Source of the DNA: a virus
DNA: 51,231 nucleotides
Direction: 5' to 3' (one strand)
IMG/VR virus record: IMGVR_UViG_3300045988_044272
Under the pieces are notes generated by a model. It was not told the DNA's origin and searched no databases. It saw only the letters and a list, made by a program, of their open reading frames with translations. Shown piece after piece: positions 1 through 51,231 of this stretch. The number at the start of each line of letters is the position of its first letter. Position 1 is the stretch's first letter. The position numbers were made by a program, and so were the translations under genes.

Positions 1-16
1 CCTGTCTCTCCGCAAT

Positions 17-37
17 AAACCTTGAAAATCAAGGTTT
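17..37. promoter_or_regulatory. Perfect palindrome AAACCTTGA-AAA-TCAAGGTTT (also at 51149..51169); candidate attP core-type site or hairpin
   Basis: 9-bp inverted arms seen in the sequence. It can also be read as AACCTT / 7-nt spacer / AAGGTT. It lies between the integrase-proximal arm repeats and the end of the lysis operon. Confidence 0.3.
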
Positions 38-47
38 TATGAAATAA

Positions 48-67
48 GTACACGAATTTGTACACGA
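48..67 (+). repeat. Two direct GTACACGA copies (48..55, 60..67; same as 51180..51199); candidate integrase arm-type sites
   Basis: gtacacgaatttgtacacga. Same octamer and orientation as three further copies at 50967..51014. Confidence 0.4.
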
Positions 68-91
68 AAGCCCCAATATTGGGGCTTTTTT
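67..91 (+). terminator. Intrinsic-terminator-like hairpin plus T-run (plus strand; copy at 51199..51223)
   Basis: aaagcccc aatatt ggggcttt followed by tttt. It lies downstream of the plus-strand integrase operon across the circular junction. Confidence 0.5.
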
Positions 92-122
92 CATATCCAT
101 ACGTTATGAGTAAGCACTCCGA

Positions 123-214: not shown

Positions 215-838
215 TCAAAGGATTTTCAAAATACCCGAAAGAATCTTTTTTATCCAATTGATAATTGGCACGCGTTTAAGGTAAAGCAATGCAGCCACAC
301 CGATTAAAGCAATATAAAAGATGTATCGCCATCGGTATGGGTCGGGGGTCGGTTCCTGCTGCTTTTCCGTGTTTGTTTCATTCTTCAACACGGTGGCGGC
401 ATTTTCAGATTCTTTGCTTTCGCTCGATTCCTTGCTTTCTCCCTTTTGCTCAACATCGGTTTCAATCACCGTTTGTTTTATGGACTTGACCACGCCTTGC
501 ACCTTACCGATATTGTCCAAATCAACACTTGCCGTTGGCTTGGGTGTCGGTTGTGGTTCGGTTGGCTTTGGTTCGTCTGCAACCTTTTTACCCGAATCCT
601 TGGCAAGTTCGCCTTGCGGCTGCTCGATTGTGGTTGGCGGGTAAAACTCAATTTCGGTGATTGTAACTTTTCCATGTTCCGTCCGGGTCGTGTCCACAAC
701 TTTTTCGGTCTGCTCTGTTACTTCCTTGACAACTGCCGTGCTGTCAAGTTGCGATTCCTTGGCTTTTGTCGCCTTTCGTGTCGCGCTGCATGAAGCAAGC
801 AACACAAGCCCCAACACAAGTGCTAAAACCTTTTTCAT
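215..838 (-). CDS. Lipoprotein with C-terminal TM anchor; candidate unimolecular spanin
   Basis: N-terminal signal with lipobox (MKKVLALVLGLVLLASC), a Pro/Glu/Thr/Lys-rich linker and a single C-terminal TM helix (YIFYIALIGVAALLYL). It lies immediately downstream of the endolysin. The topology matches u-spanins of the T1 gp11 type. Confidence 0.45.
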   Translation of the reverse strand: MKKVLALVLGLVLLASCSATRKATKAKESQLDSTAVVKEVTEQTEKVVDTTRTEHGKVTITEIEFYPPTTIEQPQGELAKDSGKKVADEPKPTEPQPTPKPTASVDLDNIGKVQGVVKSIKQTVIETDVEQKGESKESSESKESENAATVLKNETNTEKQQEPTPDPYRWRYIFYIALIGVAALLYLKRVPIINWIKKILSGILKIL

Positions 839-2531: not shown

Positions 2532-2912
2532 TTACAATGTGTTTAACAATAATGCGTTCAAATCTTCCGTAAACTGCAAGTATTCCTTGTATTCGGCAAC
2601 CGCATTATCATTGACTGAAACGCCAAGGATATGTTTGTTGTAAGAGTTTACAAGGTCAAATTCTGCCGTTTCGTCAAGAACGGAACGAATGATTACCCTT
2701 TTTAAGTTCGCCTTTGTCGGCTTGTCGAATGTGCGCACTTCATAACACTTCCAACCGACTTGAACTTCTTTTTCCTTACCTTCAGGAATGCCCGTTTCGG
2801 GTTCAATGTTGAAACGGAACAAGAAAGAACCGTCGTTGTCCTTTTCCAAAACGGCGGGTTTGCCATGCGCCATGTCATAATGCGCATTTGCTTCGATTGA
2901 ATTTAATTTCAT
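2532..2912 (-). CDS. Hypothetical protein downstream of the DGR RT (not Avd-like)
   Basis: 126-aa ORF overlapping the RT 3' end by 38 nt. Acidic with mixed predicted structure, unlike helical basic Avd. Confidence 0.5.
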   Translation of the reverse strand: MKLNSIEANAHYDMAHGKPAVLEKDNDGSFLFRFNIEPETGIPEGKEKEVQVGWKCYEVRTFDKPTKANLKRVIIRSVLDETAEFDLVNSYNKHILGVSVNDNAVAEYKEYLQFTEDLNALLLNTL

Positions 2913-3900
2913 ACGGGAATGTTTTTGAAAGTTTCTTCATTAAATTGATTGAATTACAGTATTTACACCATCCCCACCAACTGCATATCTGTTGTTTGTA
3001 CACCTCTTTTGTCGGGGCAATCTTGCGTTTGTTCAACTTTGCCACCCGGCGACAAAGTTTCTGCTTGATTGATTTCCGCAAAACGGTGTGAGAATGGTAA
3101 AATACATAGCCCAAGAAGTCAATCCCCCTTGAATCAACGGGAAAGACTTGGTAATTGCGTTTGACTTTAAGTTTCAAGCCACGCAAGTAAGCCCGGATTT
3201 CGTGCAACAATCCGTGCAAAATATCCTTGTTGTGTGCAAGAATCACAATATCATCGGCATAACGCCAATAATACTTCACCCTCTTTTCCTCTTTCAACCA
3301 ATGGTCAAAATATGCCAAGAAAAGGTTGGCAAAGTATTGGGAAAGATAATTGCCGATTGGCACACCCTCAACGGAATCTATAATTTCATCAAGCAATGCC
3401 AAAAGGCGGTTATCTTTTATTTTGCGCCTGACCACCTGTTTCAACAACTCATGGTCAATGGATGGGTAAAACTTGCGGACATCTATTTTAAGGCAATACC
3501 GCGTGCCATCCGGGTCTTGCTTCAATGCGTGCCTTAAATCCTTGGCGCATTTATGGATTCCACGGTTCTTGATACAAGAATAAGTGTTCTTGTTGAACAA
3601 TGATACCCAAATGGGTTCAAGCACGTTCATTATCGCGTGGTGCAAGATTCGGTCGGGATAATATGGCAACCGATAAATAAGACGTTCCTTGGGTTCGTAA
3701 ATCGTGAAAATGTGATACTTGGATGTTTTGAACGTACCGTTTTTCAAACTTTCGTGCAATGCAAGTAAATTGGCATCACGGTTTTTGTCGTGAATCATAA
3801 CACCATAAGAACGCAACTTACCTTTCCTCGCTTTTTCATCTGCAAGGCGCAAGTTTTCAAGTGAAATCACACGTTCATATAAATTTCCAATTCGTTTCAT
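2875..3900 (-). CDS. DGR-type reverse transcriptase
   Basis: RT motifs include PIGNYLSQYFANLFL (the DGR-specific I/LGxxxSQ) and RYADDIVIL (YxDD). It is adjacent to the TR/VR pair. The ORF track begins at 3918, but MKRIGNLYE at 3900 is the more plausible start. Confidence 0.9.
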   Translation of the reverse strand: MKRIGNLYERVISLENLRLADEKARKGKLRSYGVMIHDKNRDANLLALHESLKNGTFKTSKYHIFTIYEPKERLIYRLPYYPDRILHHAIMNVLEPIWVSLFNKNTYSCIKNRGIHKCAKDLRHALKQDPDGTRYCLKIDVRKFYPSIDHELLKQVVRRKIKDNRLLALLDEIIDSVEGVPIGNYLSQYFANLFLAYFDHWLKEEKRVKYYWRYADDIVILAHNKDILHGLLHEIRAYLRGLKLKVKRNYQVFPVDSRGIDFLGYVFYHSHTVLRKSIKQKLCRRVAKLNKRKIAPTKEVYKQQICSWWGWCKYCNSINLMKKLSKTFPYEIKFNRSKCAL

Positions 3901-4184
3901 TGTTTTACAATAACACAAGTTTGCTTGTATATTAGGATTCTTCGGGTGTTATCCCTACCAAAACCGTTTTACCTATTTCATTTTTTGCCGTTGGATTGCT
4001 CCAACTCATTCAACCCCGGTCGGGTCGTTTTTGTGGCAAGGTTTCCGATATGCAACTATATTTTTTACAAGCATAGCTGAGAACCGATATTCGCATTCGC
4101 ATTCGTAGCCGTATTATTCGTATTCGCATACACGAACCCTGCATTCGCACCATTATTCGCATTACCGCTGAACAAAACGCCACG
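3901..4184 (-). ncRNA. Putative DGR template RNA (TR plus 168-nt spacer leading into the RT gene)
   Basis: TR 4184->4069 is followed by non-coding spacer 4068->3901 directly upstream of the RT. In characterised DGRs the TR-spacer transcript is template and primer. Confidence 0.55.
4069..4184 (-). repeat. DGR template repeat (TR), 116 nt
   Basis: In frame it reads RGVLFSGNANNGANAGFVYANTNNTATNANANIGSQLC, with ten AAT codons and 29 adenines. It matches VR1 and VR2 except at adenines. Confidence 0.9.
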
Positions 4185-4234: not shown

Positions 4235-5569
4235 CTATCTTGTTGAAGCCGTTTCGATTTGCTCGATTTGCGGGAAAAAGCAAAGCCGAGAACCGAAAGC
4301 CGCATTCGCATTCGCAGCCGCATGATTCGAAGACGCAGACACGAACCCCGCAGACGCACCAGTAAGCGCATGACCGCCGAACAAAACGCCACGTTCAGAA
4401 ACTCCACTTGCCGGAATGCTTGTGTAGAAGTAATCACAAAAATACGTTGTAGAACCCGCACCGACTTCAAGGGGCATAATCTCGCCATGTTCACCAAGGA
4501 TAAGTTTCTTCACATAACCCTCCCGTCTTGGCAAGTTACCACGTAATTGATAATTAGCAACTCCCGAACTTGTGAAATGCGTGGGGTCGTCACAAACGTA
4601 AAATTCAGACAACCCGCCATCTGCTTCCGATTGAATCAAGCATTTGCAAGCATCCGTCCATTTCCACAAATGCCCAAAAGGATTTTCAACGCCTCGATAA
4701 GATGGAACATTCACTTTGAATGGAACTGCATCATATTCCGTTGGCATTGTATATTCAACAACCCCTGTGTGATTGCCAAGGCTGTTTGTTGTACCACAAG
4801 GAATCACCGGGTAATATCCATTAAAATTGCTCCACTTCGTGCCATTCAATGTTGTAACACCCGCACTTAATCCGCCTTGGTGATAACCACTTTCATCAAG
4901 TTCGGCATTAAACGCATCTTGTGAATTGAATGTGCAATATTCAACAGCGAACAACCACCATAACTTGCGGTGTGTATGATACAAGTTGCAATTCCATTCG
5001 GTTGTACCACGCTTGCGGGCATACGCACGGAAATTAGTTAATGATATTGCCGTTGCGGGCATACCAAGTTGTGTCTTGGCTGTTCCATCACGTGAAGCAT
5101 CATTATTTCCACCGCGGTAATCCGCATCCATAGAATAAACAGCGGCAAGTTTGCTTGTTGAGCGTTGCACGGTCGCTTCCACGGCTGAAACATAGTCTTT
5201 GCGCCAAAGATGAAAACCGGGCAATGGTTGTGTTGATTGTAAATGCCGACATTTGTTGCCGTCCATTTCAAAACGTACATACATATTAGGTAGTTCAACC
5301 ATATATTGTCCGTCCTTGCCCGTCAAATCTGCCGCCGCGCCGTTATCACGTTTGGTTGAATCATTTGCGTGCAAATAATAATTTACCTTGCCATCATCTT
5401 TCAAGATGCAACGGCGCATCAATGATTGCAACGGCAATTCCTTGTGCAATTCCATCTTGCCTATTCGTGTCGGCTTTGGATTTGAAACGGTAATGTCCCA
5501 TTCAATGCCGTAATAATAATCATAGGCGAATTGTGGCTTCGTGCCACCTACTCCGATAAGTAAACCCAT
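4235..5569 (-). CDS. DGR target 1: tail-module variable protein with C-type-lectin/FGE-sulfatase-like C-terminus
   Basis: VR1 forms the last ~39 codons before the tail ...GVLFGGHALTGASAGFVSASSNHAAANANAAFGSRLCF. ENPFGHLWKWTD resembles the GNVWEW motif of FGE/CLec folds. It lies after the tail fibre genes. Confidence 0.85.
   Translation of the reverse strand: MGLLIGVGGTKPQFAYDYYYGIEWDITVSNPKPTRIGKMELHKELPLQSLMRRCILKDDGKVNYYLHANDSTKRDNGAAADLTGKDGQYMVELPNMYVRFEMDGNKCRHLQSTQPLPGFHLWRKDYVSAVEATVQRSTSKLAAVYSMDADYRGGNNDASRDGTAKTQLGMPATAISLTNFRAYARKRGTTEWNCNLYHTHRKLWWLFAVEYCTFNSQDAFNAELDESGYHQGGLSAGVTTLNGTKWSNFNGYYPVIPCGTTNSLGNHTGVVEYTMPTEYDAVPFKVNVPSYRGVENPFGHLWKWTDACKCLIQSEADGGLSEFYVCDDPTHFTSSGVANYQLRGNLPRREGYVKKLILGEHGEIMPLEVGAGSTTYFCDYFYTSIPASGVSERGVLFGGHALTGASAGFVSASSNHAAANANAAFGSRLCFFPQIEQIETASTR
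4278..4393 (-). repeat. DGR variable repeat 1 (VR1)
   Basis: Hand alignment to TR (offset 209, ungapped) gives 20 mismatches. All are at TR coding-strand adenines; none occur at the 87 other positions. Confidence 0.9.
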
Positions 5570-29620: not shown

Positions 29621-31090
29621 TTAAAATCCAAAAAGACTTGCCACATCCGATTTCTTGCGGTTTGCACGTTTTTCTATCGTACCCGTCAAAGCATCGGGGG
29701 CATCATCATGTTCATTCTTTCCGGCTTTCAGATAACCGCAAATAGCCTTTGCAAATTCGGGGAATAGGCTTTTCCACCCTTGGGGCATAAACGTGAGGTT
29801 CTGAACCATTGCTGAATGTTGATAAATGCGTGTTTCTTTATTCTCCGTTTGGTGGAATGAAGAAAACTTGGTCTTGGCATTGCCTAACAATCGACATTGC
29901 TTTTCAACATTGTTCTTGAATAGGCGACCGCCGTTGTTGGCTTCCACAATACATTCGGCAACATCATGTTTGGTAAGCATTTTTGCAAGCGCGGGTTCTG
30001 TGTACTCAACCGGACGTGTCGTATAAAGCACATCAACAATGTAGTTGCCCACATCTGTTTCATCATACACAATCGCACATAAGTAATCCGCGCCCGTGTC
30101 GGCGGTGTCCACATAACATTTGCGTTTGACATACTTTGTTGCCGGGCGAATAAGATATTCCACAAAGCCACTTTCGTACATAAGTCCGGCACGCGGTTGG
30201 GGGTCTTGTTGATACAAGGAATCGAACACTTGCGGATTTCGCTTGCGTATGGACTGCAACTTTTTCAGATTATGCCGTTCCGCCCACAATGCTTCACCCT
30301 CTTGCCTTGGGTCGTATTCGGTCGGCTTTCCCTCTTTGATTGCTTTATATACGACAACAACCCACCCATCCGGGTTTTCCTTTTCATCATATATGCCTTG
30401 CTGCCGCAATAATGTACCCGCCAAATCATCTTCATGCCACCGGGTAAAGACAATCAATTGTTGGGAATCATTGTGAAGTCGGGTTTCTGCAACCGTATCG
30501 TACCAATCGGACACACTTTCACGGACAATGGGCGACCATGCCGTTTTAGCATCCTTGTAAATATCATCCATTATCAGAATATCAACGGGTTCACCCGTCA
30601 ATGCTCCCCCCACGCCAACCGTCTTGAAGCCGCCGCGATAACCTACAATTTCGCATTCATCGGCATTTCGTAACCAAGAACCCGCGACCGTTGTAACATT
30701 TGAAGCATTCAAGTTGGTATTCGGGAATATCTCGTGATATTCGGGACTGTCAATAATACGTTGAATCTCTCGGTTGAACTTTCTTGCCTTGGGTGCATTA
30801 TAAGACACAATCGCCAATTTGTTATCAGGATTCTTACCGACCAAGAAAGCGGGTAATCGCCTTGTTGAACCCTCGGACTTTCCATGTTGGGGTGGCATAA
30901 AGACCATAAGTTTGCGAATTTTGCCATCTGCAAAGTCTGTCAATACATGATAGTATCGGCGGTGAAAGTCTGCCGGGCGAAACGTGGGCATTGTGGACAT
31001 TGTAAAGCGCAACAAATCGGAACGACTTTCACGAATAAGCCGTTCTTTCAATGCCTTGTAATACTTTATTTTGTCCGCCCGCTTCTGCAT
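29621..31090 (-). CDS. terL: Terminase large subunit
   Basis: 489 aa. Walker A-like PPQHGKSE, Walker B-like ILIMDDIY and a C-terminal nuclease-like region. Flanked by the small terminase and portal genes. Confidence 0.85.
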   Translation of the reverse strand: MQKRADKIKYYKALKERLIRESRSDLLRFTMSTMPTFRPADFHRRYYHVLTDFADGKIRKLMVFMPPQHGKSEGSTRRLPAFLVGKNPDNKLAIVSYNAPKARKFNREIQRIIDSPEYHEIFPNTNLNASNVTTVAGSWLRNADECEIVGYRGGFKTVGVGGALTGEPVDILIMDDIYKDAKTAWSPIVRESVSDWYDTVAETRLHNDSQQLIVFTRWHEDDLAGTLLRQQGIYDEKENPDGWVVVVYKAIKEGKPTEYDPRQEGEALWAERHNLKKLQSIRKRNPQVFDSLYQQDPQPRAGLMYESGFVEYLIRPATKYVKRKCYVDTADTGADYLCAIVYDETDVGNYIVDVLYTTRPVEYTEPALAKMLTKHDVAECIVEANNGGRLFKNNVEKQCRLLGNAKTKFSSFHQTENKETRIYQHSAMVQNLTFMPQGWKSLFPEFAKAICGYLKAGKNEHDDAPDALTGTIEKRANRKKSDVASLFGF

Positions 31091-38801: not shown

Positions 38802-39551
38802 TTATAATTTTCTTCTGTCCTTTCCTTTGATTTCAAAGTAATTACACATTTCCACCAACCGACTTGCCACACGGTCGCCATAACGGTTCATTAATACATC
38901 ACCTTGCATCTTCATGTTGGAAGTTATCAAAGTCATTTCATCGCATTTGTCGCCCCGGTATTCGATAAGCTGCCGGACTACATCAATACGATTACCCATG
39001 TACAAGTTTTCTTGTGGTTCTTGCCCGAAATCCTGAATGCCAAGCATCGGTTGTTTTTTGAATATCTGGAAATTGCCATTCTCAACGAAGTAGTCACACA
39101 AAGCATCTGCACGAATAATCCGCCACCATAGGGGGCGTGGTTGTGAATCATCTTGCCAAAGAACTTTGAAGCCGAAAGCCGTGCAATATGCTTGCATTAT
39201 TTCCAAACACCATGATTTGCCCGACCCTGTATTTCCGGCAATGTATATTCCACGCTTCAATCGCCCCGGTATCACTTGCCCTGTATTGGGGTCAAGGCAT
39301 TTCATTGACGGGTCGCAATGCGCCCATTTGATGAAGTTTTCGTAAGTGAATCGGTTTTCATCATCAATTACGAATTTCGGGTTTCGGCTTTTGCCAATCG
39401 CTTCAACAATCTTCAATGCTTCATTTACATCATAGTGAATGTATTGGTAGCGTTGGAAGCCCGCAAATAATCCACGCTGATTGATTGCATGAAGTATTTG
39501 TTCAATACTTGGCATCTGAATCTTTTTGTTATTTCCGTCTTTTACTTCCAT
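38802..39551 (-). CDS. DnaC/IstB-like AAA ATPase (replicative helicase loader-like)
   Basis: Walker A GIYIAGNTGSGKSW. LITSN-type segment MTLITSNM. Adjacent to the replisome organizer gene. Confidence 0.6.
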   Translation of the reverse strand: MEVKDGNNKKIQMPSIEQILHAINQRGLFAGFQRYQYIHYDVNEALKIVEAIGKSRNPKFVIDDENRFTYENFIKWAHCDPSMKCLDPNTGQVIPGRLKRGIYIAGNTGSGKSWCLEIMQAYCTAFGFKVLWQDDSQPRPLWWRIIRADALCDYFVENGNFQIFKKQPMLGIQDFGQEPQENLYMGNRIDVVRQLIEYRGDKCDEMTLITSNMKMQGDVLMNRYGDRVASRLVEMCNYFEIKGKDRRKL

Positions 39552-40237
39552 TCGTCATTCACTTTTGTTGTTGTCTTGTTGCCTGAATATGCCGACCGCC
39601 TTTCTTTTTCTCCTTTTGCCCAATTGCGAATGGCGGCTTTCCAATCTTTCATCTTGTTTTTACCGACAAACCAACCTTTGCTTTCGTAGAAGTCGAAAAA
39701 CCTTTCAGCATCGAAAGAATATCCCTTTTCAAGAATATAAGCCCTTATTTCTTCAATTGTGGGCGGTAAAAAGCGGTGTCCGCTTTTCTCTTTTATATTC
39801 TCTTTATTATCTTCTTTTCTTTCCTTTTCTTTTCTTTCCTTTGCATCATTTTGCAATGCACTTGCATCGGCTTTGCATTGCTCTTGCTTATCCTTACTTG
39901 ATTGCCAACGCTTTATGGCTGCTGCTTTTCGCTTTTCCGCTATGTCCGCACGTTTACCAAGGCGTGTTATTACTGACTTTGACCAAAACTTTTCACCATC
40001 ATTAGTGAACAAATCAAAGTCATTCACGACACTTTCAACCATTGCTACATCAACGTGCAATGCAAATGCAATACTTTTGCACGATTTCAAAGGCAAATGC
40101 CCCCCTTGTTCGTATAATTGTTCTACAACGCACCAAAAGACACCTAACCCCGCCGCCCCGTGCTCAATCAAAACATCTTGCAACTTTGGGTCGGTTCGTG
40201 CATTGTAATCATGTTGAAAATAGAATGTATCTTTCAT
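39542..40237 (-). CDS. Phage replisome organizer / replication initiation protein (DUF4373-like N-terminus)
   Basis: MKDTFYFQHDYNARTDPKLQDVLIEHGAAGLGVFWCVVEQLY matches the DUF4373 pattern. Confidence 0.6.
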   Translation of the reverse strand: MKDTFYFQHDYNARTDPKLQDVLIEHGAAGLGVFWCVVEQLYEQGGHLPLKSCKSIAFALHVDVAMVESVVNDFDLFTNDGEKFWSKSVITRLGKRADIAEKRKAAAIKRWQSSKDKQEQCKADASALQNDAKERKEKERKEDNKENIKEKSGHRFLPPTIEEIRAYILEKGYSFDAERFFDFYESKGWFVGKNKMKDWKAAIRNWAKGEKERRSAYSGNKTTTKVNDEWK

Positions 40238-41016
40238 CTTACAACGTGTTTTTGTGATTCACCAATGCCAAACAATGCAAAGTCATATTTACATGGGTCT
40301 GTGGGGTCGAAAACCGCCAAATTTCGCGTCAATTCTTCAACCGTCTTGCGGTCATTACTTTTGCGTGTAATCAACCCCAATTCGCGCCCGATTCGGGCAA
40401 CATGGACATCAAGGGGCATCATCAGCTTGTCGGGTGTCAATTCGTGCCAAATACCTAAATCAACAATACCATCTTGACGACACAACCAACGCAACATCAG
40501 GTTCAAGCGTTTGCAAGCCGAACCGCCTTTGTGTGAATTGCCTTGCGGATTGGGAAAATGCTTTGAATAACTGCCGTTTGCATCTTTGAATATTTCACGC
40601 AACTTGGTGAATCCCGCCCATACGTCAAAACCTCGTTCTTTGAAGAAATATTCCAAAGTGTCATAAGTTCCCGTAATCCAATATGCAAGTTGCAACCCAC
40701 TACACATATACGCCAAATCCCGCCCAAAGAATGTGCGGTGGATATTGCAATTCGGGTCTATATGCTTCCACCCATCTTGCATCACAAAGTCATAAGGTTT
40801 GCCATCCATAATGTCAAACAACATCTTTTGGCAACCTGTCATTATCTGTTTCCTATTACCCCAAGCGATTGTTGAAGCAAGGAACGCGGCAATTTCAATG
40901 TCTTGTTGGGATTTGCCCAAGAAACAACGTGGAAACAACACCGGGTCATTATCCATGAATGCCGTTGTGTTATATCTTGCCACAAGGGATTCCAATGTTA
41001 TCTTCAAATCATTCAT
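40234..41016 (-). CDS. TIGR02757 (DUF2400) family protein
   Basis: DNDPVLFPRCF...DIEIAAFLASTIAWGNRKQI...GKPYDFVM matches my recollection of the family signature. The start was chosen at MNDLK (41016), which is preceded by a hairpin and atatcgcaacaATG. Confidence 0.55.
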   Translation of the reverse strand: MNDLKITLESLVARYNTTAFMDNDPVLFPRCFLGKSQQDIEIAAFLASTIAWGNRKQIMTGCQKMLFDIMDGKPYDFVMQDGWKHIDPNCNIHRTFFGRDLAYMCSGLQLAYWITGTYDTLEYFFKERGFDVWAGFTKLREIFKDANGSYSKHFPNPQGNSHKGGSACKRLNLMLRWLCRQDGIVDLGIWHELTPDKLMMPLDVHVARIGRELGLITRKSNDRKTVEELTRNLAVFDPTDPCKYDFALFGIGESQKHVVR

Positions 41017-41070
41017 TGTTGCGATATTTAAGCCCCCGACCCGGCACAAAGTCAAGCCGGGGGCACTCTG

Positions 41071-41820
41071 TTAAACCTCAATGATTGCGATTTCCGGCGC
41101 AATCTCCCTTATTTGCTTCAATTGTTCATCAATCACCTTGTCGCGCAAATCTTCAAGTGTGGCTTGCGCACCGGGTGAAAGAAGTACGAACGCAACTTCA
41201 CGTCCATTTACTTGTGCAAATGTTTCAACCTCTATTGTTTCGGGTTGCATACCCTTGAAAATGGGCATTTGAATTGTGAATGATTCGGGCAAATTGGAAT
41301 TGACCACTTGTGCAAAATTATCCGTTCGATTACCATTTTCTTTCACGGCACGGTCAATCTTGTTGTTCACATCGGCGGTAAAGTTCATCAGGCATGAAAC
41401 CAATTTCATGTTTTCGGAACGGTCGGCAAAGAATGCCCGATTCATCTTGATAAACATTCCAAGTTCCGTCGGTGTCCAAATCTTACCGCCATTTATTCCG
41501 AACTCAACAAATTTGGGGTTGTAGCCCAATTTGCCGACTATTTCACCACGTTTGTATTCATCCGCTTCATTGATTATCAAAGTGATTTCAATATTTTCAC
41601 GGTTTACAAGAATATGGCAATCCTTTTGGGCAAATTGTCCTGTGTTGATTCTCTTTGTTAGATATTCAACGACTGCACCAATTACACCGTTCAATTTGGT
41701 TTTGACGGGTGCTTTGGGGTCAAGTTCCTTTGGTGCTACACCCTCACGCAACACTAATTCAGCTTTTGCCATTCCGGGGGCAAAGTTGATTTGTAATTTC
41801 TCATTCTGCATATTATTCAA
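41071..41820 (-). CDS. Hypothetical protein
   Basis: 249-aa ORF in the early operon; no motif recognised. Confidence 0.55.
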   Translation of the reverse strand: MNNMQNEKLQINFAPGMAKAELVLREGVAPKELDPKAPVKTKLNGVIGAVVEYLTKRINTGQFAQKDCHILVNRENIEITLIINEADEYKRGEIVGKLGYNPKFVEFGINGGKIWTPTELGMFIKMNRAFFADRSENMKLVSCLMNFTADVNNKIDRAVKENGNRTDNFAQVVNSNLPESFTIQMPIFKGMQPETIEVETFAQVNGREVAFVLLSPGAQATLEDLRDKVIDEQLKQIREIAPEIAIIEV

Positions 41821-41831
41821 TTTTTAAATGG

Positions 41832-42278
41832 TTAATCATTAGTTCCTGTTTTCCTTTCGGTGTTCATTCGTATTCCTTGAAAGATGGTTGGTTGAAGTTC
41901 ATCCGCTGTTGCTGGTCTGCATTCAATCAAATCACCCTCATCATTGTAAAACCCAGTTTCCTTTCTGTCTTGGTCTGTAAATCTGTAACATACTTCCGTC
42001 ACATATTCAGCCTTTGACTTGATATTTGAAACCATATTTGTTCTTGCTTCTTTCAATGGTTTCAATCTGCCTTTATATTCGGCTTGTGATTGCTTCATTT
42101 CCGCTTCGATTTCGGCGATTTCGATTGAAACATTGGCAAGTTTTTCTTTATGCCCTTGCAGTTCTTCCGGGCTGTATGGTTTCATGTACCCTTTGTTTTC
42201 AACGCCATCGCAATTGTCTTTCAAAAATGCGATACGTTGCATCTTGTTTTCGTATTCTTTTCCAAGCGTCTTATCCAT
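41832..42278 (-). CDS. Hypothetical coiled-coil protein
   Basis: 148-aa ORF. A copy of the 16-nt motif lies 8 nt upstream of its ATG. Confidence 0.5.
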   Translation of the reverse strand: MDKTLGKEYENKMQRIAFLKDNCDGVENKGYMKPYSPEELQGHKEKLANVSIEIAEIEAEMKQSQAEYKGRLKPLKEARTNMVSNIKSKAEYVTEVCYRFTDQDRKETGFYNDEGDLIECRPATADELQPTIFQGIRMNTERKTGTND

Positions 42279-42307: not shown

Positions 42308-42928
42308 TTATCTAAATAACAAAACTTGATTCCACAAATCAATAAATTGTTCCCCGAATTGGCGGGCGCGAGCGGACGTTTTGAAGCAAAGCCGAGAACC
42401 GAAATGCGCATACGCACCCGAAGCCGTAGTAAGCGTATACGCACACACGAACCCCGCAGCATCATCGGAATATACAAACCACGGAAACCACTTTTCTTGA
42501 TTCCTGTTTGAGAAATCCGGGGTGAAATCATCTTCTTTGTTCCATGCTTGTGCAATAGTGCAAAGACGGTTGAAAGCAATAATGGCTTTAACGTGTTTGG
42601 GGTTAAGCTCTGAAACCAACCTTGTAACATCTTCAAGTTGGACACAATTACCCGAAAGAATCTTTTTGGCAACGGTAAAATCTGCATTGGGCTTGCCACC
42701 AAGATATTCCCTTGCCTTTTCATAATCTGTAACCACTTCGTTGATTTCCTTGCTCTCAATCTCTTCAAGGGTAAAATCAAACGGGGTCAAGTATTCTTCA
42801 TCGTCTGAATCCACATCTTCGTTGTGTTCCTCGATAAAGCTCAACATTTCATCTGCTGCTTCACTTTTTGAATCGAACTTTCCGCAAATTTCTTGCGTTT
42901 TCTTGTTTGTCACTAAATACTTTTTCAT
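42308..42928 (-). CDS. DGR target 2: small acidic protein with no signal peptide and a C-terminal VR, in the early operon
   Basis: 206 aa with no signal peptide or TM segment and an acidic N-terminal half. The C-terminus ...AAGFVCAYTLTTASGAYAHFGSRLCF is encoded by VR2 and parallels target 1 ...SAGFVSASSNHAAANANAAFGSRLCF. Confidence 0.75.
   Translation of the reverse strand: MKKYLVTNKKTQEICGKFDSKSEAADEMLSFIEEHNEDVDSDDEEYLTPFDFTLEEIESKEINEVVTDYEKAREYLGGKPNADFTVAKKILSGNCVQLEDVTRLVSELNPKHVKAIIAFNRLCTIAQAWNKEDDFTPDFSNRNQEKWFPWFVYSDDAAGFVCAYTLTTASGAYAHFGSRLCFKTSARARQFGEQFIDLWNQVLLFR
42384..42460 (-). repeat. DGR variable repeat 2 (VR2), matches the 3' 77 nt of TR
   Basis: Hand alignment to TR 4069..4145 (offset 38315, ungapped) gives 16 mismatches. 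All are at TR coding-strand adenines (16 of 22); none occur at the 55 other positions. Confidence 0.8.
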
Positions 42929-42939
42929 TGTTGTAAGAA

Positions 42940-43713
42940 TTAAAATGGTGATACATTGAAGTTCTTTATTGTCATTCCACTTCGTGCAATGTGAATGGTC
43001 TTGCCTGTTGCTTCCAAAATACCTTGCTTAAACTCCCTTTCATTTGAATTGCCATCCGAAAGGTGTATCAAGACAATGTTATTGACTTTTGACAAGTCGT
43101 TTGCAATCAAGGCTTCCTTGCACGTGTCATAACTGCAATGGCTTTTAATCGTCCGTTCACGCAAAGCCATCGGTAATTTTCCCGATTCCACATTAGCATC
43201 CAATATGTCTTGTCGGTAATTACATTCAATCAAGATGTTGTTCAAGCCTTGAAAGGTGTAATGCAAGTAATGTGTATCGGTCGCAAATAAGACCTTTCCG
43301 CATTCAGGGTGGAAAATCAGGAATCCGAAAGGTTCACTGGCATCATGTTGGACGACAAAGGGCAACACGTTGAAACTGCCGATTGCAACCTTGCATTGTG
43401 CATCCATCATCAACGGCGACAAATAAGGGTTCTTGAACTTCTTGATAACCTCATGCAATGTCCCGGTGGACATGTACACGGGAATACGGGCTTGAATGAA
43501 GTTTTCAACGTATTTGGCATGGTCGCCATGCTCATGTGATACGATTGCCCCTTTGATGCGTGAAATGTCAAAATTGACCGCCTTTTGCACCTCGTTGAAT
43601 GAAATACCACATTCAATTACCAAGGCTTCCTTGCCATTGTCAAGTATGTAGCAATTACCCTTTGAAGAAGAACCCAAAATTTTCAATTCCATAGTCTTTC
43701 GGATTTTATTCAT
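42940..43713 (-). CDS. Metallo-beta-lactamase-fold hydrolase (putative nuclease of the recombination module)
   Basis: The HxHxDH motif is VSHEHGDHAKY. It lies directly downstream of the RecT-like gene. Confidence 0.7.
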   Translation of the reverse strand: MNKIRKTMELKILGSSSKGNCYILDNGKEALVIECGISFNEVQKAVNFDISRIKGAIVSHEHGDHAKYVENFIQARIPVYMSTGTLHEVIKKFKNPYLSPLMMDAQCKVAIGSFNVLPFVVQHDASEPFGFLIFHPECGKVLFATDTHYLHYTFQGLNNILIECNYRQDILDANVESGKLPMALRERTIKSHCSYDTCKEALIANDLSKVNNIVLIHLSDGNSNEREFKQGILEATGKTIHIARSGMTIKNFNVSPF

Positions 43714-44667
43714 TTAGAAGCCGGGATTTGGCTTGTGTTCATCTTTCGGTGCTTCCGTGGTATCTTTGTTCACGCTTTCCGTTTCGGTGTTTCTTGGGGC
43801 TTGTTTAGGACTTTGATTGCCGTTTTCCTCAATATCTGCACCGATAGTTTCTTTATTGGCATTGTTCCGCCTTTCTTCTTCAGGGGATTCTATTACTTCT
43901 TGATAATCCACATCAACAATATCTTGTTGTTCCTCAATAGTGCGCATACCCATTGACAAGTCGGGTGCATAAACGGAAGTCCACCATGAAGCTGCACGAT
44001 ACATCAACATTTGTTTTGTCATGGTCTGCCACTTTGAGCCGTTCTTTGTAAACCAACCCTCTTGAATGGCAAGGCGGACGGAAACCGGGGATGATTCAAG
44101 CACTTCTTTTGAACCTTTCTTTGTCGTATATGCTACACATTCAATGTCTTGTATCGCCTTGCCATCAAACTGCTTTTGCACCGCTTGTTTTCGGTTGCTT
44201 CGTGAATCCCAAACATAATCGGTATAATCAACCATTCCCAACATACCTTTGTTGGTGAAGCGGTATTGCAGCGGTTCAAAGCGACCGCAAGAATTGACGG
44301 TTGCAATCAAGAACTTTGACGACCAAGACGGCTTGCCATAAATCGGCACCATGTTTTGCATCACCATCAATGGACTTGCACCGATACGCATTGAAATCTC
44401 AATGGCAATCATGCAATTGGCAACGGCTTTGTTTTGCGCGGCTTGGTTTTCAAGTTGAATTGCCGCAATTTGTTCGGGATTTGCATTTGCCGGAACTTGC
44501 TTAAATGTCGGTTTGTAATTGTCCGGCACAAGGTCGGATGAAGCGAACATTTTGCAAACTCTCTGCATAGTTTCAAACTGTACCGGGTCAAAGAAGTTGA
44601 ATCCGGCATTCATCGGGTTGGTGGTTGTTACAACTCCAACCGGGTTTTGTTTCTGAATTTCGTTCAT
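43714..44667 (-). CDS. RecT-like single-strand annealing protein
   Basis: 317 aa between the SbcC-like ATPase and the MBL hydrolase. The central region is RecT-like, and the C-terminal tail is acidic/basic low-complexity. Confidence 0.5.
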   Translation of the reverse strand: MNEIQKQNPVGVVTTTNPMNAGFNFFDPVQFETMQRVCKMFASSDLVPDNYKPTFKQVPANANPEQIAAIQLENQAAQNKAVANCMIAIEISMRIGASPLMVMQNMVPIYGKPSWSSKFLIATVNSCGRFEPLQYRFTNKGMLGMVDYTDYVWDSRSNRKQAVQKQFDGKAIQDIECVAYTTKKGSKEVLESSPVSVRLAIQEGWFTKNGSKWQTMTKQMLMYRAASWWTSVYAPDLSMGMRTIEEQQDIVDVDYQEVIESPEEERRNNANKETIGADIEENGNQSPKQAPRNTETESVNKDTTEAPKDEHKPNPGF

Positions 44668-44675
44668 AATTGATA

Positions 44676-46634
44676 TTATTTGATGGTTAAGAAATTGTCT
44701 TTGTTTACAACCAAATTGATTATTTGGCTTTGCGTTTCGATAATGTCATTGACCGATTCCCGGTTATCAATGAAAATTGGTGCGCAAACCCCATAGAACT
44801 TGCACAACGTGTTGATAATGTCAAGACCCGCATTCATCTTGCTTGCAGTGTTTGCGCTGCCGTAAGGGACACCGCCGATTGTTGGAATGCACGTTTCAAC
44901 CGGGTTGCCGTCGTTGGTATAATCGAACAAATGGAATGATACAACTTTGAACATCGCATTGATACGGCTTTCACATTCATCAATCTTGTTTTTGGTGAAC
45001 TGTGCAATGGTGTATTCTTCACGCTCTGCATCGGCAATCATTTGTGCAAGTTGCTTGCCCCTTTCTTCAAGGTCTGCAATTTCCTTTTCACAACGGGCAA
45101 TGACATCACGTTTTGCAAGGCGTGCGACCAAATCACCACGTTTTTTGTTACATTCCGCCTTTTGGGTCTGTAAATCGGCGGTATCAATGCCCGAATTGTC
45201 GGTTATAATGGTTGCTTCAATGTCGGCAATCTCCTTTTGCTTTGCTACATATTCGGGTATTTGTTCAGGAACGACGGTGGCAATATCAATAACCGGGACT
45301 TCAACGAATTTTTCTTTGAGTGTATCAAGTTCATTACACAATGTTTCTTTGGTTTTAACCGCATTGTCCACATCTTGTTTGATTTCATCAACTTTGGCTT
45401 CAAGTTCCGAAACCTTATCACCAAGTCTTTTGCCCTCGGTTGATATGTCATTGCATTTTTCGGCTTGTGCCTTGGTGAATACCTCACGGGCTTTTGAAAT
45501 CATATTTTCGGGCAACTCTTGTCCACAATGTGGGCAAACTGTTTCACCATTGTAGGTCTTTTCATTTTCCGCAAACCATTTGTTGCGCAAATCGTCTTGC
45601 TTGGTCTTGATACCCTCAATTTCACGGTGAATTTTGGCAATTTCAACTTGCCCGGCGGTTATTTCCTTTCGGGTGTTTTCAAGTTGTCTTTCCTTATCCT
45701 TGATTTGGCTTTCAAGTTCACGGCGGCTTGCATTGGCTTCAAAGGCGGCATTTTGAGCCTTGCTCTTGGCATCGAAAAGAATTTGTTGACATTCTGATTT
45801 CAAGTTGTTTACCCTTTTTTGCTTGTTTTGTTCCGCTTCATATTGGCGACGGATTGCGGCGGTTACGTCTGCAATTGCCTTGTCGATTTCTGCAATCTCC
45901 TTGTCTATTTGTTCAATCTCCACTTCTATTTCATGGAAATCTTCATTTTCCGGCTTCATCTTGTGTGTTTGGTCAATCCTTGGTTGGATTTGTGCCAATT
46001 CATCTTGCAAGCGCTTTTTCCGTGCCACCAATTCTTTTTTGAAGTCTGCAAGTGATTTACCGCTTATCTTGTCAAGTAAAAGGGCAAATTCGGGATTCCG
46101 TGAAGCAATTTCAGCATCTGTAATTGTCCCTGCAAGCTGAAACAATTGTTCACGTTGTAACTTCCAATTCATACCCACGAAGAAAGCCGGGTTTGTAATC
46201 ATCTTGAACACGGATGAATCAATAATGGCTTCAATTCGTTTTGTGTACTCACCGACATTTACCGGGGTGTCATTCCACCAACATTCGGTATGGTTGCCTT
46301 TGAACACCCTTTCAACTTGTCCACGTGGCTTCACCCAATCTTCTACAAATGCACGTTTCAATGTGATTTCTTGACCATCAACCACAATAACACCCGACAC
46401 GCTGCATTCCACGTTGTGAAGTTCTTGCCCGTTGATTCGGGTTTTTACTTCATAATCCTTACGGTCTTGGGTGTCTTTGCCGAATAGTAGCCAAATGAAA
46501 GCATCAAAATGGCGTGATTTACCCATGCCGTTACCACCTGTTATTGTGGTGACATCGGCATTGAAATTCGTTATCCGTTCCTTTTCACCTTTGAAGTTGC
46601 AAAGGGTAAGGGATTTTAAAACTACCTGTTTCAT
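44676..46634 (-). CDS. SbcC/Rad50-like AAA ATPase with long coiled coil
   Basis: N-terminal LTLCNFKGEKERITNF...TITGGNGMGKSRHFDAFIWLLFG (Walker A), a long central coiled coil with CPHCGQ (zinc-hook-like), and a C-terminal ABC signature region. Confidence 0.8.
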   Translation of the reverse strand: MKQVVLKSLTLCNFKGEKERITNFNADVTTITGGNGMGKSRHFDAFIWLLFGKDTQDRKDYEVKTRINGQELHNVECSVSGVIVVDGQEITLKRAFVEDWVKPRGQVERVFKGNHTECWWNDTPVNVGEYTKRIEAIIDSSVFKMITNPAFFVGMNWKLQREQLFQLAGTITDAEIASRNPEFALLLDKISGKSLADFKKELVARKKRLQDELAQIQPRIDQTHKMKPENEDFHEIEVEIEQIDKEIAEIDKAIADVTAAIRRQYEAEQNKQKRVNNLKSECQQILFDAKSKAQNAAFEANASRRELESQIKDKERQLENTRKEITAGQVEIAKIHREIEGIKTKQDDLRNKWFAENEKTYNGETVCPHCGQELPENMISKAREVFTKAQAEKCNDISTEGKRLGDKVSELEAKVDEIKQDVDNAVKTKETLCNELDTLKEKFVEVPVIDIATVVPEQIPEYVAKQKEIADIEATIITDNSGIDTADLQTQKAECNKKRGDLVARLAKRDVIARCEKEIADLEERGKQLAQMIADAEREEYTIAQFTKNKIDECESRINAMFKVVSFHLFDYTNDGNPVETCIPTIGGVPYGSANTASKMNAGLDIINTLCKFYGVCAPIFIDNRESVNDIIETQSQIINLVVNKDNFLTIK

Positions 46635-49401: not shown

Positions 49402-49688
49402 AAAAATCTATCAATCCACGGGCAATTGAAATCCAACGGCGATTTTTTGAAGCATTGGACATGGCTATTTCCTTGGGCAAGGTAAATGGTTTGAAAGGTT
49501 TTTGTGATACCCACAAATTGAACCGCACCAAGTATTCAAGGATAAAAAACGACTTGAACAAACCGCTTGATGAAATGACATACAAGATGATTGATTTGGA
49601 TGCACTTTCGGGCATTTGTACGGACTTTGGCGTATCGGCTGAATGGTTGTTGCTCGGACGTGGAAAAATGCTTAAATCGGACAAATAA
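49398..49688 (+). CDS. Phage CI-repressor-type HTH protein (possible recombination directionality or regulatory factor)
   Basis: C-terminal LSGICTDFGVSAEWLLLGRGKM matches the ...WLLtGeG ending of the Phage_CI_repr family. Its stop overlaps the integrase start. Confidence 0.45.
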   Translation: MKKSINPRAIEIQRRFFEALDMAISLGKVNGLKGFCDTHKLNRTKYSRIKNDLNKPLDEMTYKMIDLDALSGICTDFGVSAEWLLLGRGKMLKSDK

Positions 49689-50965
49689 TGCACATACAAA
49701 AGGGAATAAAGTTTTTGTTACACAAAAGGGGCAAGGGTGATTCCGAAAATCTTGCAATCCGAATGCGCGTTACATTGAGGGGGCAAACACCTTTTGATGT
49801 TCCGACCGGGCATAATATAGACCTTGCCGATTGGGATATGGAAAACCAGCGTGCATTACCATCTTGCAATTCATCATCAGACATAAACCGAACCATTGAT
49901 GAATGGAAATCGGTAATGAATGAAATCTTTGCCCGATATGAATTGTTAGAAAAGCGTATTCCAACACCGGGTGAAGTCAAGGACTTGTTTAATGACATGA
50001 TGGGGCGAAAGACCCCAACCAATGAATCCCTTGCTTCACCCGGCGACAACTTCTTTATGACATTTGATGTTTTTACTGAAACGATGGGCAAGCAAAATGG
50101 ATGGACGGAAGCGACACAAGAAAAATTCCGCGCAATAAAAGCACATTTGCAAGCCTTTGACCCGTTATTATCATTCTATACATTGAATGAAGAAAAGATG
50201 CAAGCATACCTTGCACATTTAAGTAAGGTTGGATTACGGAACACCACCATTGCAAAGAACCTTGCTTTTGTCCGTTGGTTTTTACGTTGGGCGGCAAACA
50301 AGGGATATTATCTTGGTAAGCTGCATGATACATTCAAGCCCAAATTGAAAGGCATTGACGGCAATTCAAAAGAAATAATATATTTGACACAAGATGAAAT
50401 CAAATCATTGGAAAATCACCAATTCTTGCCCACACAATCAGCCCTTGAACGTGTCCGGGACGTGTTCTTGTTTTCATGCTTCACCGGGTTGCGTTATTCA
50501 GATGTTGCCAAATTAAAGCGTACTGACATAAAAGACGGCTTTATTGATGTCGTAACCAAGAAAACCAATGACGGGTTGCGTATAGAATTGAACAAGCATT
50601 CACAAGCCATTCTTGACAAATACAAGGAATGCCACTTTCCGGGGAACTTGGCATTACCTGTAATATCGAATGTGAAGATGAATGCACACTTGAAAATACT
50701 TGGGCAAGTGTGTGGCATTGATGAACCGACCCGAATTGTGTTTTTTCAAGGCAACACCCGGCATGAACAAGTATTGCCAAAGTGGGCATTATTGACAACT
50801 CATTGCGGACGGCGAACATTTGTTGTTACCGCCTTGCAACTTGGCATCCCAAGTGAAGTCATAATGAAGTGGACGGGGCATTCTGATTATTCGGCAATGA
50901 AACCATATATTGCCATTGTTGATGAATTAAAGGCAAAAGCAATGTCGCGGTTTGATAATCTCTAA
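49688..50965 (+). CDS. int: Tyrosine integrase (Bacteroides-type, with N-terminal arm-binding and SAM-like domains)
   Basis: Catalytic signature FTGLRYSD (R), HCGRRTF (H-x-x-R) and GHSDYSAMKPYI (H...Y). 425 aa. Confidence 0.9.
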   Translation: MHIQKGIKFLLHKRGKGDSENLAIRMRVTLRGQTPFDVPTGHNIDLADWDMENQRALPSCNSSSDINRTIDEWKSVMNEIFARYELLEKRIPTPGEVKDLFNDMMGRKTPTNESLASPGDNFFMTFDVFTETMGKQNGWTEATQEKFRAIKAHLQAFDPLLSFYTLNEEKMQAYLAHLSKVGLRNTTIAKNLAFVRWFLRWAANKGYYLGKLHDTFKPKLKGIDGNSKEIIYLTQDEIKSLENHQFLPTQSALERVRDVFLFSCFTGLRYSDVAKLKRTDIKDGFIDVVTKKTNDGLRIELNKHSQAILDKYKECHFPGNLALPVISNVKMNAHLKILGQVCGIDEPTRIVFFQGNTRHEQVLPKWALLTTHCGRRTFVVTALQLGIPSEVIMKWTGHSDYSAMKPYIAIVDELKAKAMSRFDNL

Positions 50966-51132: not shown

Positions 51133-51231
51133 CCTGTCTCTCCGCAATAAACCTTGAAAATCAAGGTTTTATGAAATAAGTACACGAATTTGTACACGAA
51201 AGCCCCAATATTGGGGCTTTTTTCATATCCA
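51133..51231. repeat. Terminal direct repeat, copy 2 (identical to 1..99)
   Basis: Same 99-nt string as 1..99. The window ends exactly at the repeat boundary, which fits circular-contig overlap or a short DTR. Confidence 0.95.

Follow-up and report, generated by a model that had tools for sequence, protein, structure and literature searches.

Does a phage diversity-generating retroelement (DGR) act on a gene that lies far from its reverse transcriptase (RT), amid genes of DNA metabolism, and what could such a diversified protein be for? This question is raised by IMG/VR virus record IMGVR_UViG_3300045988_044272, a stretch of 51,231 nucleotides that is referred to here, at its full length, as the window. 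A 99-bp exact direct repeat (1..99 = 51133..51231) marks it as a complete circular genome of 51,132 bp. The genome carries one DGR, whose template repeat (TR) is matched by a variable repeat (VR1) in the adjacent tail-protein gene and by a second stretch, VR2, inside a remote gene for a 206-aa protein. VR2 is very probably a bona fide and currently active second target of this single DGR, and we regard the assignment as about as secure as sequence data permit. The role of the protein is read far more cautiously below. The elements on which the argument turns are:

42308..42928, minus strand: VR2 target gene, 206 aa, phrog_11581 (open reading frame (ORF) and translation; phrog_11581 match at E 2.7e-21)
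42384..42460, minus strand: VR2, homologous to the 3' part of TR (ungapped TR match)
4069..4184, minus strand: TR, 116 nt with 29 adenines, of which VR2 draws on 4069..4145 (TR/VR1 and TR/VR2 alignments)

Differences between VR2 and the template repeat

A reading of this DNA made from the sequence alone (the sequence-only reading) had aligned 42384..42460 with TR 4069..4145. Recomputation returned the same ungapped alignment of 77 nt. Its 16 mismatches all fall on TR adenines (16 of 22) and none on the remaining 55 positions, exactly as first reported, and the affected base is T on the plus strand, that is, A on the coding (minus) strand, in 16 of 16 cases (hypergeometric P = 5.5e-12 for all 16 mismatches on the 22 A positions). 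Over 77 nt, the differences are confined to TR adenines in the manner of a DGR target. The homology, described earlier as stopping abruptly upstream of VR2, ends abruptly on both sides of the alignment. A scan of the whole window found three TR-core sites with zero non-A mismatches, namely TR itself, VR1 (4278..4348) and VR2, and scans with 40-nt pieces of the full TR revealed no further VR in the window.

The same genome encodes the cognate DGR-type RT, which is intact as a single ORF and whose translation holds IGNYLSQ and YADD. The motifs IGxxxSQ and YADD are hallmarks of DGR-type RTs. All parts of the DGR lie on the minus strand, and VR2 is situated about 12.7 kb from TR across the circular junction and 38 kb the other way, in agreement with the distances given previously. 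The remaining parts of the cassette are:

2875..3918, minus strand: DGR RT, likely ATG start at 3900 (RVT_1 E 7.8e-21; phrog_1423 E 5e-125)
4278..4393, minus strand: VR1, cassette-proximal (20 mismatches to TR, all at A)
4235..5569, minus strand: VR1 target gene, 444-aa tail protein (phrog_5302 'tail protein', E 1.7e-121)
3919..4068, minus strand: TR-RT spacer (partial folding signal)

Variation at VR2 among related proteins and genomes

A database search returned 2922 relatives of the VR2 protein. The best 120 are 92-100% identical to it, and 111 of these are likewise 206 aa long. Among the 111 proteins, only positions 162, 164-168, 170, 171, 173, 175 and 176 are hypervariable. The residues found there match the spectra of adenine-randomised TR codons (TAT to Y/C/F/S, ACG to T/A/S/P, ATC to I/F/V/L), and the AAT codons of TR give rise to 13-15 residues in the population. 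Up to 15^6 x 4^5 variants, or about 1.2e10 proteins, are possible at VR2.

The VR2 and RT/TR loci of 13 related IMG/VR genomes were retrieved as pairs. Between VR2 and the TR of the same genome there are 7-15 differences, all of them at adenines save one base. That base belongs to an AAT to AGG change in IMGVR_UViG_3300045988_031540 (L006), the sole non-adenine case in the 13 genomes. In three others of the 13 (L010, L014 and L029), non-A differences in TR are mirrored in the genome's own VR2; such tracking of the resident TR at non-A sites is what repeated retrohoming predicts. Divergence from close relatives amounts to 0.18-0.36 per nt in a 45-nt core, compared with 0.002-0.023 in the other 576 nt of the gene, so that divergence in the core runs at 10-150 times the rate of the remainder, and all changes but one are at TR-A positions. 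The diversified part of VR2 can be delimited as follows:

42401..42445, minus strand: diversified VR2 core, codons 162-176, with 17 TR adenines and 11 variable codons (population columns and divergence rate)

The sequence-only reading had proposed that variants in populations should sit only opposite TR adenines and that related genomes should share a scaffold with divergence limited to VR2. Between assemblies, variation is present and sited at the A-templated codons, and in related genomes the scaffold is conserved and divergence is concentrated in the VR2 core. The proposal of a genuine second, remote DGR target is strongly supported by these two comparisons.

They also bear on the idea that VR2 is an inactive relic of a past recombination between VR and TR and is no longer diversified. 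Representation of TR by its 3' 77 nt only, together with five fixed mismatches, three of them 5' and two 3', would suit such a relic. Against it stand the hypervariability of otherwise near-identical proteins at exactly the A-templated codons, the tracking of TR in the 13 genomes, non-A changes included, and the accelerated divergence of the core. On these sequence comparisons a relic appears already refuted, and we give it hardly any credence.

An artefact of assembly or chimerism, produced by the repeated VR/TR sequence, is another conceivable source of the match. One contig of 9353 bp, IMGVR_UViG_3300013903_000025 (L031/L113), does fuse the 3' end of the VR2 gene directly to TR 3' flank and RT sequence. 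The gene, with its VR at an identical position, recurs, however, with conserved synteny in more than 100 independent assemblies, as well as in metagenome-assembled genomes (MAGs) and isolate genomes, and the probability of an artefact is practically negligible. The contig itself holds TR-like unmutated sequence where the VR should be; its junction is probably an assembly collapse over the repeat of about 75 nt, with a real recombinant of VR2 and TR as the alternative.

Boundaries of VR2 and a putative route of transfer

The 16 mismatches had been reported as one set. The 11 in the core reflect mutagenesis, and the five at the boundaries are fixed differences. At the 5' boundary, three mismatches (TR AAT GCA, VR2 GCT GCG) are invariant in the population; codon 157, AAT in TR and GCT in VR2, encodes an alanine without variation in the 111 proteins. 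These three mismatches mark the end of homology. At the 3' boundary, two mismatches (CAG to CGG and CTA to CTT) form a pair common to VR1. Residue 179 is Arg in 110 of the 111 proteins (one R179L) and L180 is invariant. None of the 13 related genomes departs from these two 3' differences to TR, and GGTTCTCGGCTTTGCTT is the same in VR1 and VR2 throughout. By analogy with the BPP-1 model, the two fixed differences (CGGCTT versus CAGCTA) may correspond to an initiation of mutagenic homing (IMH)/IMH* pair. A GC-rich 14-mer was not found at the VR 3' end, where the 2-nt fixed CGGCTT/CAGCTA difference is present.

42384..42400, minus strand: IMH-like VR2 3' end, GGTTCTCGGCTTTGCTT (TR: GGTTCTCAGCTATGCTT) (fixed differences common to VR1)

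The description of the VR as the C-terminus of the protein needs correction, as 24 conserved residues, KTSARARQFGEQFIDLWNQVLLFR, comprising two predicted helices, come after VR2. The use of only the 3' part of TR was confirmed by the shorter variable span. Population variability of the VR1 protein covers residues 400-425, diversified over the full TR, and VR2 is variable only in the part homologous to VR1 411-425, its 5' limit lying within the A-free block GGGTTCGTGT.

The TR and its RT lie beside the tail-protein target, and this one TR is also a source of sequence in trans for the VR2 site 12.7 kb off, at which codons 162-176 of the 206-aa protein are replaced by adenine-randomised copies of the 3' two-thirds of TR. 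Following the BPP-1 model, cDNA synthesis would begin at the TR 3' end, and the fixed 3' element GGTTCTCGGCTTTGCTT, which occurs in VR1 and VR2 and not in TR, would mark the recipient and set directionality. The 5' crossover is placed in GGGTTCGTGT because homology stops just upstream of this block. Within the cassette, the 101 nt at 3985..4085 (minus strand), made up of the last 17 nt of TR and the adjoining 84 nt of the spacer, show more stable folding than shuffled sequences (z -2.0), and this structured stretch may be comparable to the Sp RNA of the BPP-1 DGR.

The target protein and its family

The VR2 protein has the 206 aa and the very acidic N-terminal half ascribed to it (residues 1-86: pI 4.24, 24 D/E versus 10 K/R). 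The absence of a transmembrane segment and of a signal peptide was borne out, with a top Kyte-Doolittle 19-residue mean of 0.82. The phrog_11581 match spans residues 87-205, and this PHROG is without functional or structural annotation; Pfam, NCBIfam and PADLOC yielded no domain assignment for the protein. A sensitive search gathered a family of 996 clusters at 50% identity (E<=1e-3), whose scaffold is recognised by the motifs LNKLFTIAEAWN, F-PDFS, Q-K-FPWF and RA-QFG-QF-DLWN. A VR-like segment of GSRLC type is present in 59 of 129 family representatives, and the other 70 have unrelated sequence at the same place. Because about half of the representatives carry unrelated sequence there, the family alignment suggests that the variable hairpin and loop are the natural specificity element of phrog_11581. 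Scaffolds without the VR-like hairpin and loop include locus L002 9210-9755 (MT836526) and representatives P0131, P0232 and P0245. For members of this kind, the contigs recovered measure only 1.2 and 4.8 kb.

An AlphaFold (AF2) model computed from a 100-sequence alignment reached a pLDDT of 92 and a pTM of 0.83. It depicts an acidic N-terminal domain with a small beta-beta-alpha-beta arrangement and a conserved, largely helical C-terminal domain of two helices, a beta-hairpin (146-154, 159-168), a loop and two further helices. The variable residues are located on the second hairpin strand and the subsequent loop. Two faint likenesses, neither significant, were observed at the N-terminus: residues 6-27 (42848-42913, minus strand) show a weak NUMOD1-like match at E 0.14, and in Foldseek the beta-beta-alpha unit resembles the N-termini of intron endonucleases and many phage proteins of 50-60 aa.

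A minimal C-type lectin (CLec) fold had been expected for the region around VR2. It was not detected by Foldseek, profile or Pfam searches, and the sensitivity of this fold test is unproven, as the VR1 protein, modelled from 34 database homologues to serve as positive control, reached a pLDDT of only 27.8 and gave no usable structure. In Foldseek, none of the 73 PDB structural matches at E<=10 fell below E 1, and the best 50 of them include no CLec entry. Searches of PDB sequences retrieved no relative for the family profile and none for the VR1 tail-protein profile from a locus-derived alignment. Matches in BFVD were to uncharacterised phage proteins only. When the family was compared with that of the VR1 tail protein by hhalign, the VR alone was aligned (137-188 with 386-437). 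Ten longer family members (237-308 aa) had no informative Pfam match.

Genomic neighbourhood and possible roles of the VR2 protein

The gene had been placed between MBL/RecT/SbcC-like genes and replication genes, and domain and PHROG matches agree:

44676..46634, minus strand: SbcC-like ATPase, upstream (Pfam/PHROG matches)
43714..44667, minus strand: RecT, upstream (Pfam/PHROG matches)
42940..43713, minus strand: metallo-beta-lactamase (MBL)-fold hydrolase, upstream (Pfam/PHROG matches)
41832..42278, minus strand: phrog_12688, downstream (PHROG match)
41071..41820, minus strand: DUF2303, downstream (domain match)
40234..41055, minus strand: DUF2400, downstream (domain match)
39542..40237, minus strand: replication initiator, downstream (domain match)
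38802..39551, minus strand: DnaC-like loader, downstream (domain match)

From its upstream end, the same-strand order begins with helix-turn-helix and LuxR-type regulators and DUF3853 and passes through the SbcC-like ATPase, RecT and the MBL hydrolase to the VR2 gene. Beyond it follow phrog_12688, DUF2303, DUF2400, the replication initiator, the DnaC-like loader and Ant, then methyltransferases, and then terminase and portal. The VR2 gene, flanked by intergenic gaps of 11 and 29 nt, is situated outside the structural module and among DNA-metabolism genes, and relatives with as little as about 60% identity have the same gene order.

We propose, as a serious possibility that nevertheless falls short of probable, that the VR2 protein is a non-virion, intracellular hypervariable binding module in conflict between phage and host or between phages. 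The variable surface would recognise a polymorphic component of host defence or of a competing phage, and a conserved face (the AWN helix, the F-PDFS-Q-K-P-F loop and the FGxQF helix) would hold a constant partner. An anti-defence role is speculation. The favoured order of functions is an intracellular binder first, then a prophage defence sensor, and then a virion-associated binder.

Several observations weigh against VR2 as an actively diversified module of an intracellular binder. The variation was measured between assemblies and not within the reads of one sample. The lack of a signal peptide does not establish an intracellular role, as virion proteins lack one too. Neither domains, fusion partners nor structural neighbours hint at a function. 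Neither VR1 nor VR2 has a conserved hairpin or cruciform within the next 100 nt downstream; DNA folding in these flanks is close to that of shuffled sequences (z -0.4 for VR1 and -0.8 for VR2) and reveals no common element. Finally, Pfam, PHROGs and NCBIfam gave no match to Avd for the ORFs that surround the RT, and ORF 2532..2912 (minus strand), compared with PDB sequences for the same purpose, had none either. A recognisable Avd is absent from some DGRs. ORF 2532..2912 itself encodes 126 aa, overlaps the RT 3' end, belongs to phrog_11557 and is unlike a basic helical bundle.

Last in that order, the protein could be a virion-associated or extracellular binder, such as an accessory adhesin or decoration protein, with VR2 serving attachment to host or mucus like VR1. 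VR2 shares its VR chemistry with the tail protein, structural proteins are likewise without signal peptides, and known phage DGR targets are overwhelmingly receptor-binding proteins (PMC8144416, PMC10743442). The gene, however, belongs to a tight same-strand block of regulators, recombination and replication, a position kept down to 60% identity; its homologue in LoVEphage also sits amid DNA-metabolism genes, and the PHROG has no structural annotation. VR1 and VR2 residues are also uncorrelated within a genome (45 identical versus 40.8 +/- 4.0 expected, P 0.18, low power), and with this correlation not significant, a common ligand for VR1 and VR2 was not retained. A virion binder is in our judgement improbable.

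Somewhat less improbable, and still unlikely, is a hypervariable prophage sensor that would act in superinfection exclusion or lysogen defence and not in lytic counter-defence. The phage is temperate, with an integrase at 49688..50965; DGR-diversified intracellular sensors are known in bacteria (bioRxiv 10.1101/2023.09.22.558884); and the upstream SbcC-like ATPase is generically similar to defence ATPases such as LmuB. On the other hand, the gene lies in a lytic-direction operon divergent from the integrase side, an effector domain and a PADLOC match are both absent, and the trio of ATPase, RecT and MBL hydrolase recurs widely in phages as a module for recombination. Across the VR2 protein and its neighbours, PADLOC returned only generic ATPase similarities. 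The MBL hydrolase could be a partner nuclease of RecT or a counter-defence enzyme. Its identification as the anti-Pycsar protein Apyc1 was not adopted, the match being sub-threshold (E 0.0022; 17.9 versus 50 bits) and the protein having no PDB sequence relative.

Relation to known diversity-generating retroelements

The sequence-only reading had called a target of this kind unusual. This was overstated, as precedents exist (PMC8008677, PMC12629997). In Quimbyvirus, Benler et al. 2021 (PMC8008677) described a second DGR target that is distal, non-structural and located in a 'defence-island', adjoining a MutY-like nuclease, methyltransferases and a tRNA ligase, and proposed a role in phage-host conflict; the homologue was called CLec-containing. 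A distal second VR is reported for four prophage species by Dahlman et al. 2025 (PMC12629997), who, as here, located it by BLAST of the TR and who cite the Benler paper for LoVEphage; these second VRs have counter-defence genes, methyltransferases among them, in their vicinity. As far as the text of that article shows, it does not describe the protein family, its structure or its population variation. The LoVEphage-species isolates PV4-TP1 and BI-TP1 of that study carry homologues of the VR2 protein, and at megablast level the collection is without the phage analysed here.

The Quimbyvirus/LoVEphage protein (ORF 80/84; MW660583 protein QVQ57199.1) belongs to the same family, phrog_11581, with about 28% identity in tblastn (E to 1e-8). 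The LoVEphage homologue and the VR2 protein share the motifs LCTIA-AWN, PWF and FGEQF-LW. Compared with LoVEphage's own TR, its 113-nt VR has 19 mismatches, all at A (19 of 26 adenines). Like the VR2 gene, it is non-structural, lies far from the RT cassette and has DUF2400 (the 'MutY-like nuclease'), DUF2303 and phrog_12688 genes close by, DUF2400 being directly adjacent in LoVEphage.

The two systems differ in several respects. The present phage has 51 kb, whereas the Quimby-like phages have 71-75 kb, and the TR sequences are different. The RT is an intact single ORF here and frameshifted in Quimbyvirus. VR2 draws on the 3' 77 nt (45-nt core) of a 116-nt TR, in contrast to the at least 113 nt of its TR used by the LoVEphage VR. 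The flanks comprise RecT, MBL and replication genes in one case and several methyltransferase genes with an RtcB tRNA ligase in Quimbyvirus/LoVEphage. In LoVEphage, the RT region (L119 6107-7333 = MW660583 48292-49518) is annotated with three short ORFs, in agreement with the frameshift reported for Quimbyvirus, and the TR lies at about L119 7315.

With BPP-1 (Mtd) and the tentaclin cassettes, the present DGR has in common the A-specific transfer from TR to VR, an IGxxxSQ/YADD RT, a VR 3' element unlike that of TR and a single TR for two VRs of different length. Phage cassettes with two targets of receptor-binding type are known from the tentaclins (PMC10743442). The BPP-1 and tentaclin targets are receptor-binding virion proteins with CLec folds, encoded in or beside the cassette. 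Here, by contrast, the second target is 12.7 kb off in a DNA-metabolism block, and CLec likeness and Avd were not detected.

That the phrog_11581 family includes a distal DGR target is already known from LoVEphage and Quimbyvirus. What appears new from the comparison is that another DGR, in another phage lineage, diversifies the same family through a truncated VR. The distal non-structural target of Quimbyvirus is not one phage's curiosity; diversification of the family extends to a second, widespread lineage of Bacteroidales prophages. Roux et al. 2021 stated that their own survey was unable to detect remote targets, and as such surveys searched only near the RT, the view of phage DGRs as serving adsorption only is biased. 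A confident model with a defined surface of 11 variable codons, in a large family of which about half of the representatives carry a VR-like motif, brings within experimental reach the question of how hypermutation of an early protein that is apparently intracellular benefits a phage.

It is also conceivable, though we consider it doubtful, that the C-terminal domain of phrog_11581 is an unrecognised DGR scaffold, either non-CLec or a much-reduced CLec, that two or more unrelated DGRs of Bacteroidales phages have independently taken up as a programmable intracellular binder, with a VR-like insert in about half of some 1000 family clusters. If true, phages would possess a kind of intracellular 'antibody', aimed at competing phages or at host defence proteins that are polymorphic.

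Host range and further observations

No near-identical phage was found in INPHARED by megablast of the 38-48 kb region. A Parabacteroides MAG encodes the closest copy of the VR2 protein, at 96%, and close copies occur in Parabacteroides, Prevotella and Muribaculaceae assemblies; a scan of genome collections with this single protein gave 9 loci. TerL (29621-31090, minus strand) is 77% identical to that of the Porphyromonas gingivalis phage phage005. A gut bacterium of the Bacteroidales is the probable host. Near the start of the window, the beginning of ORF 215-838 (minus strand) resembles the lipoprotein signal region of the PG1828 family.

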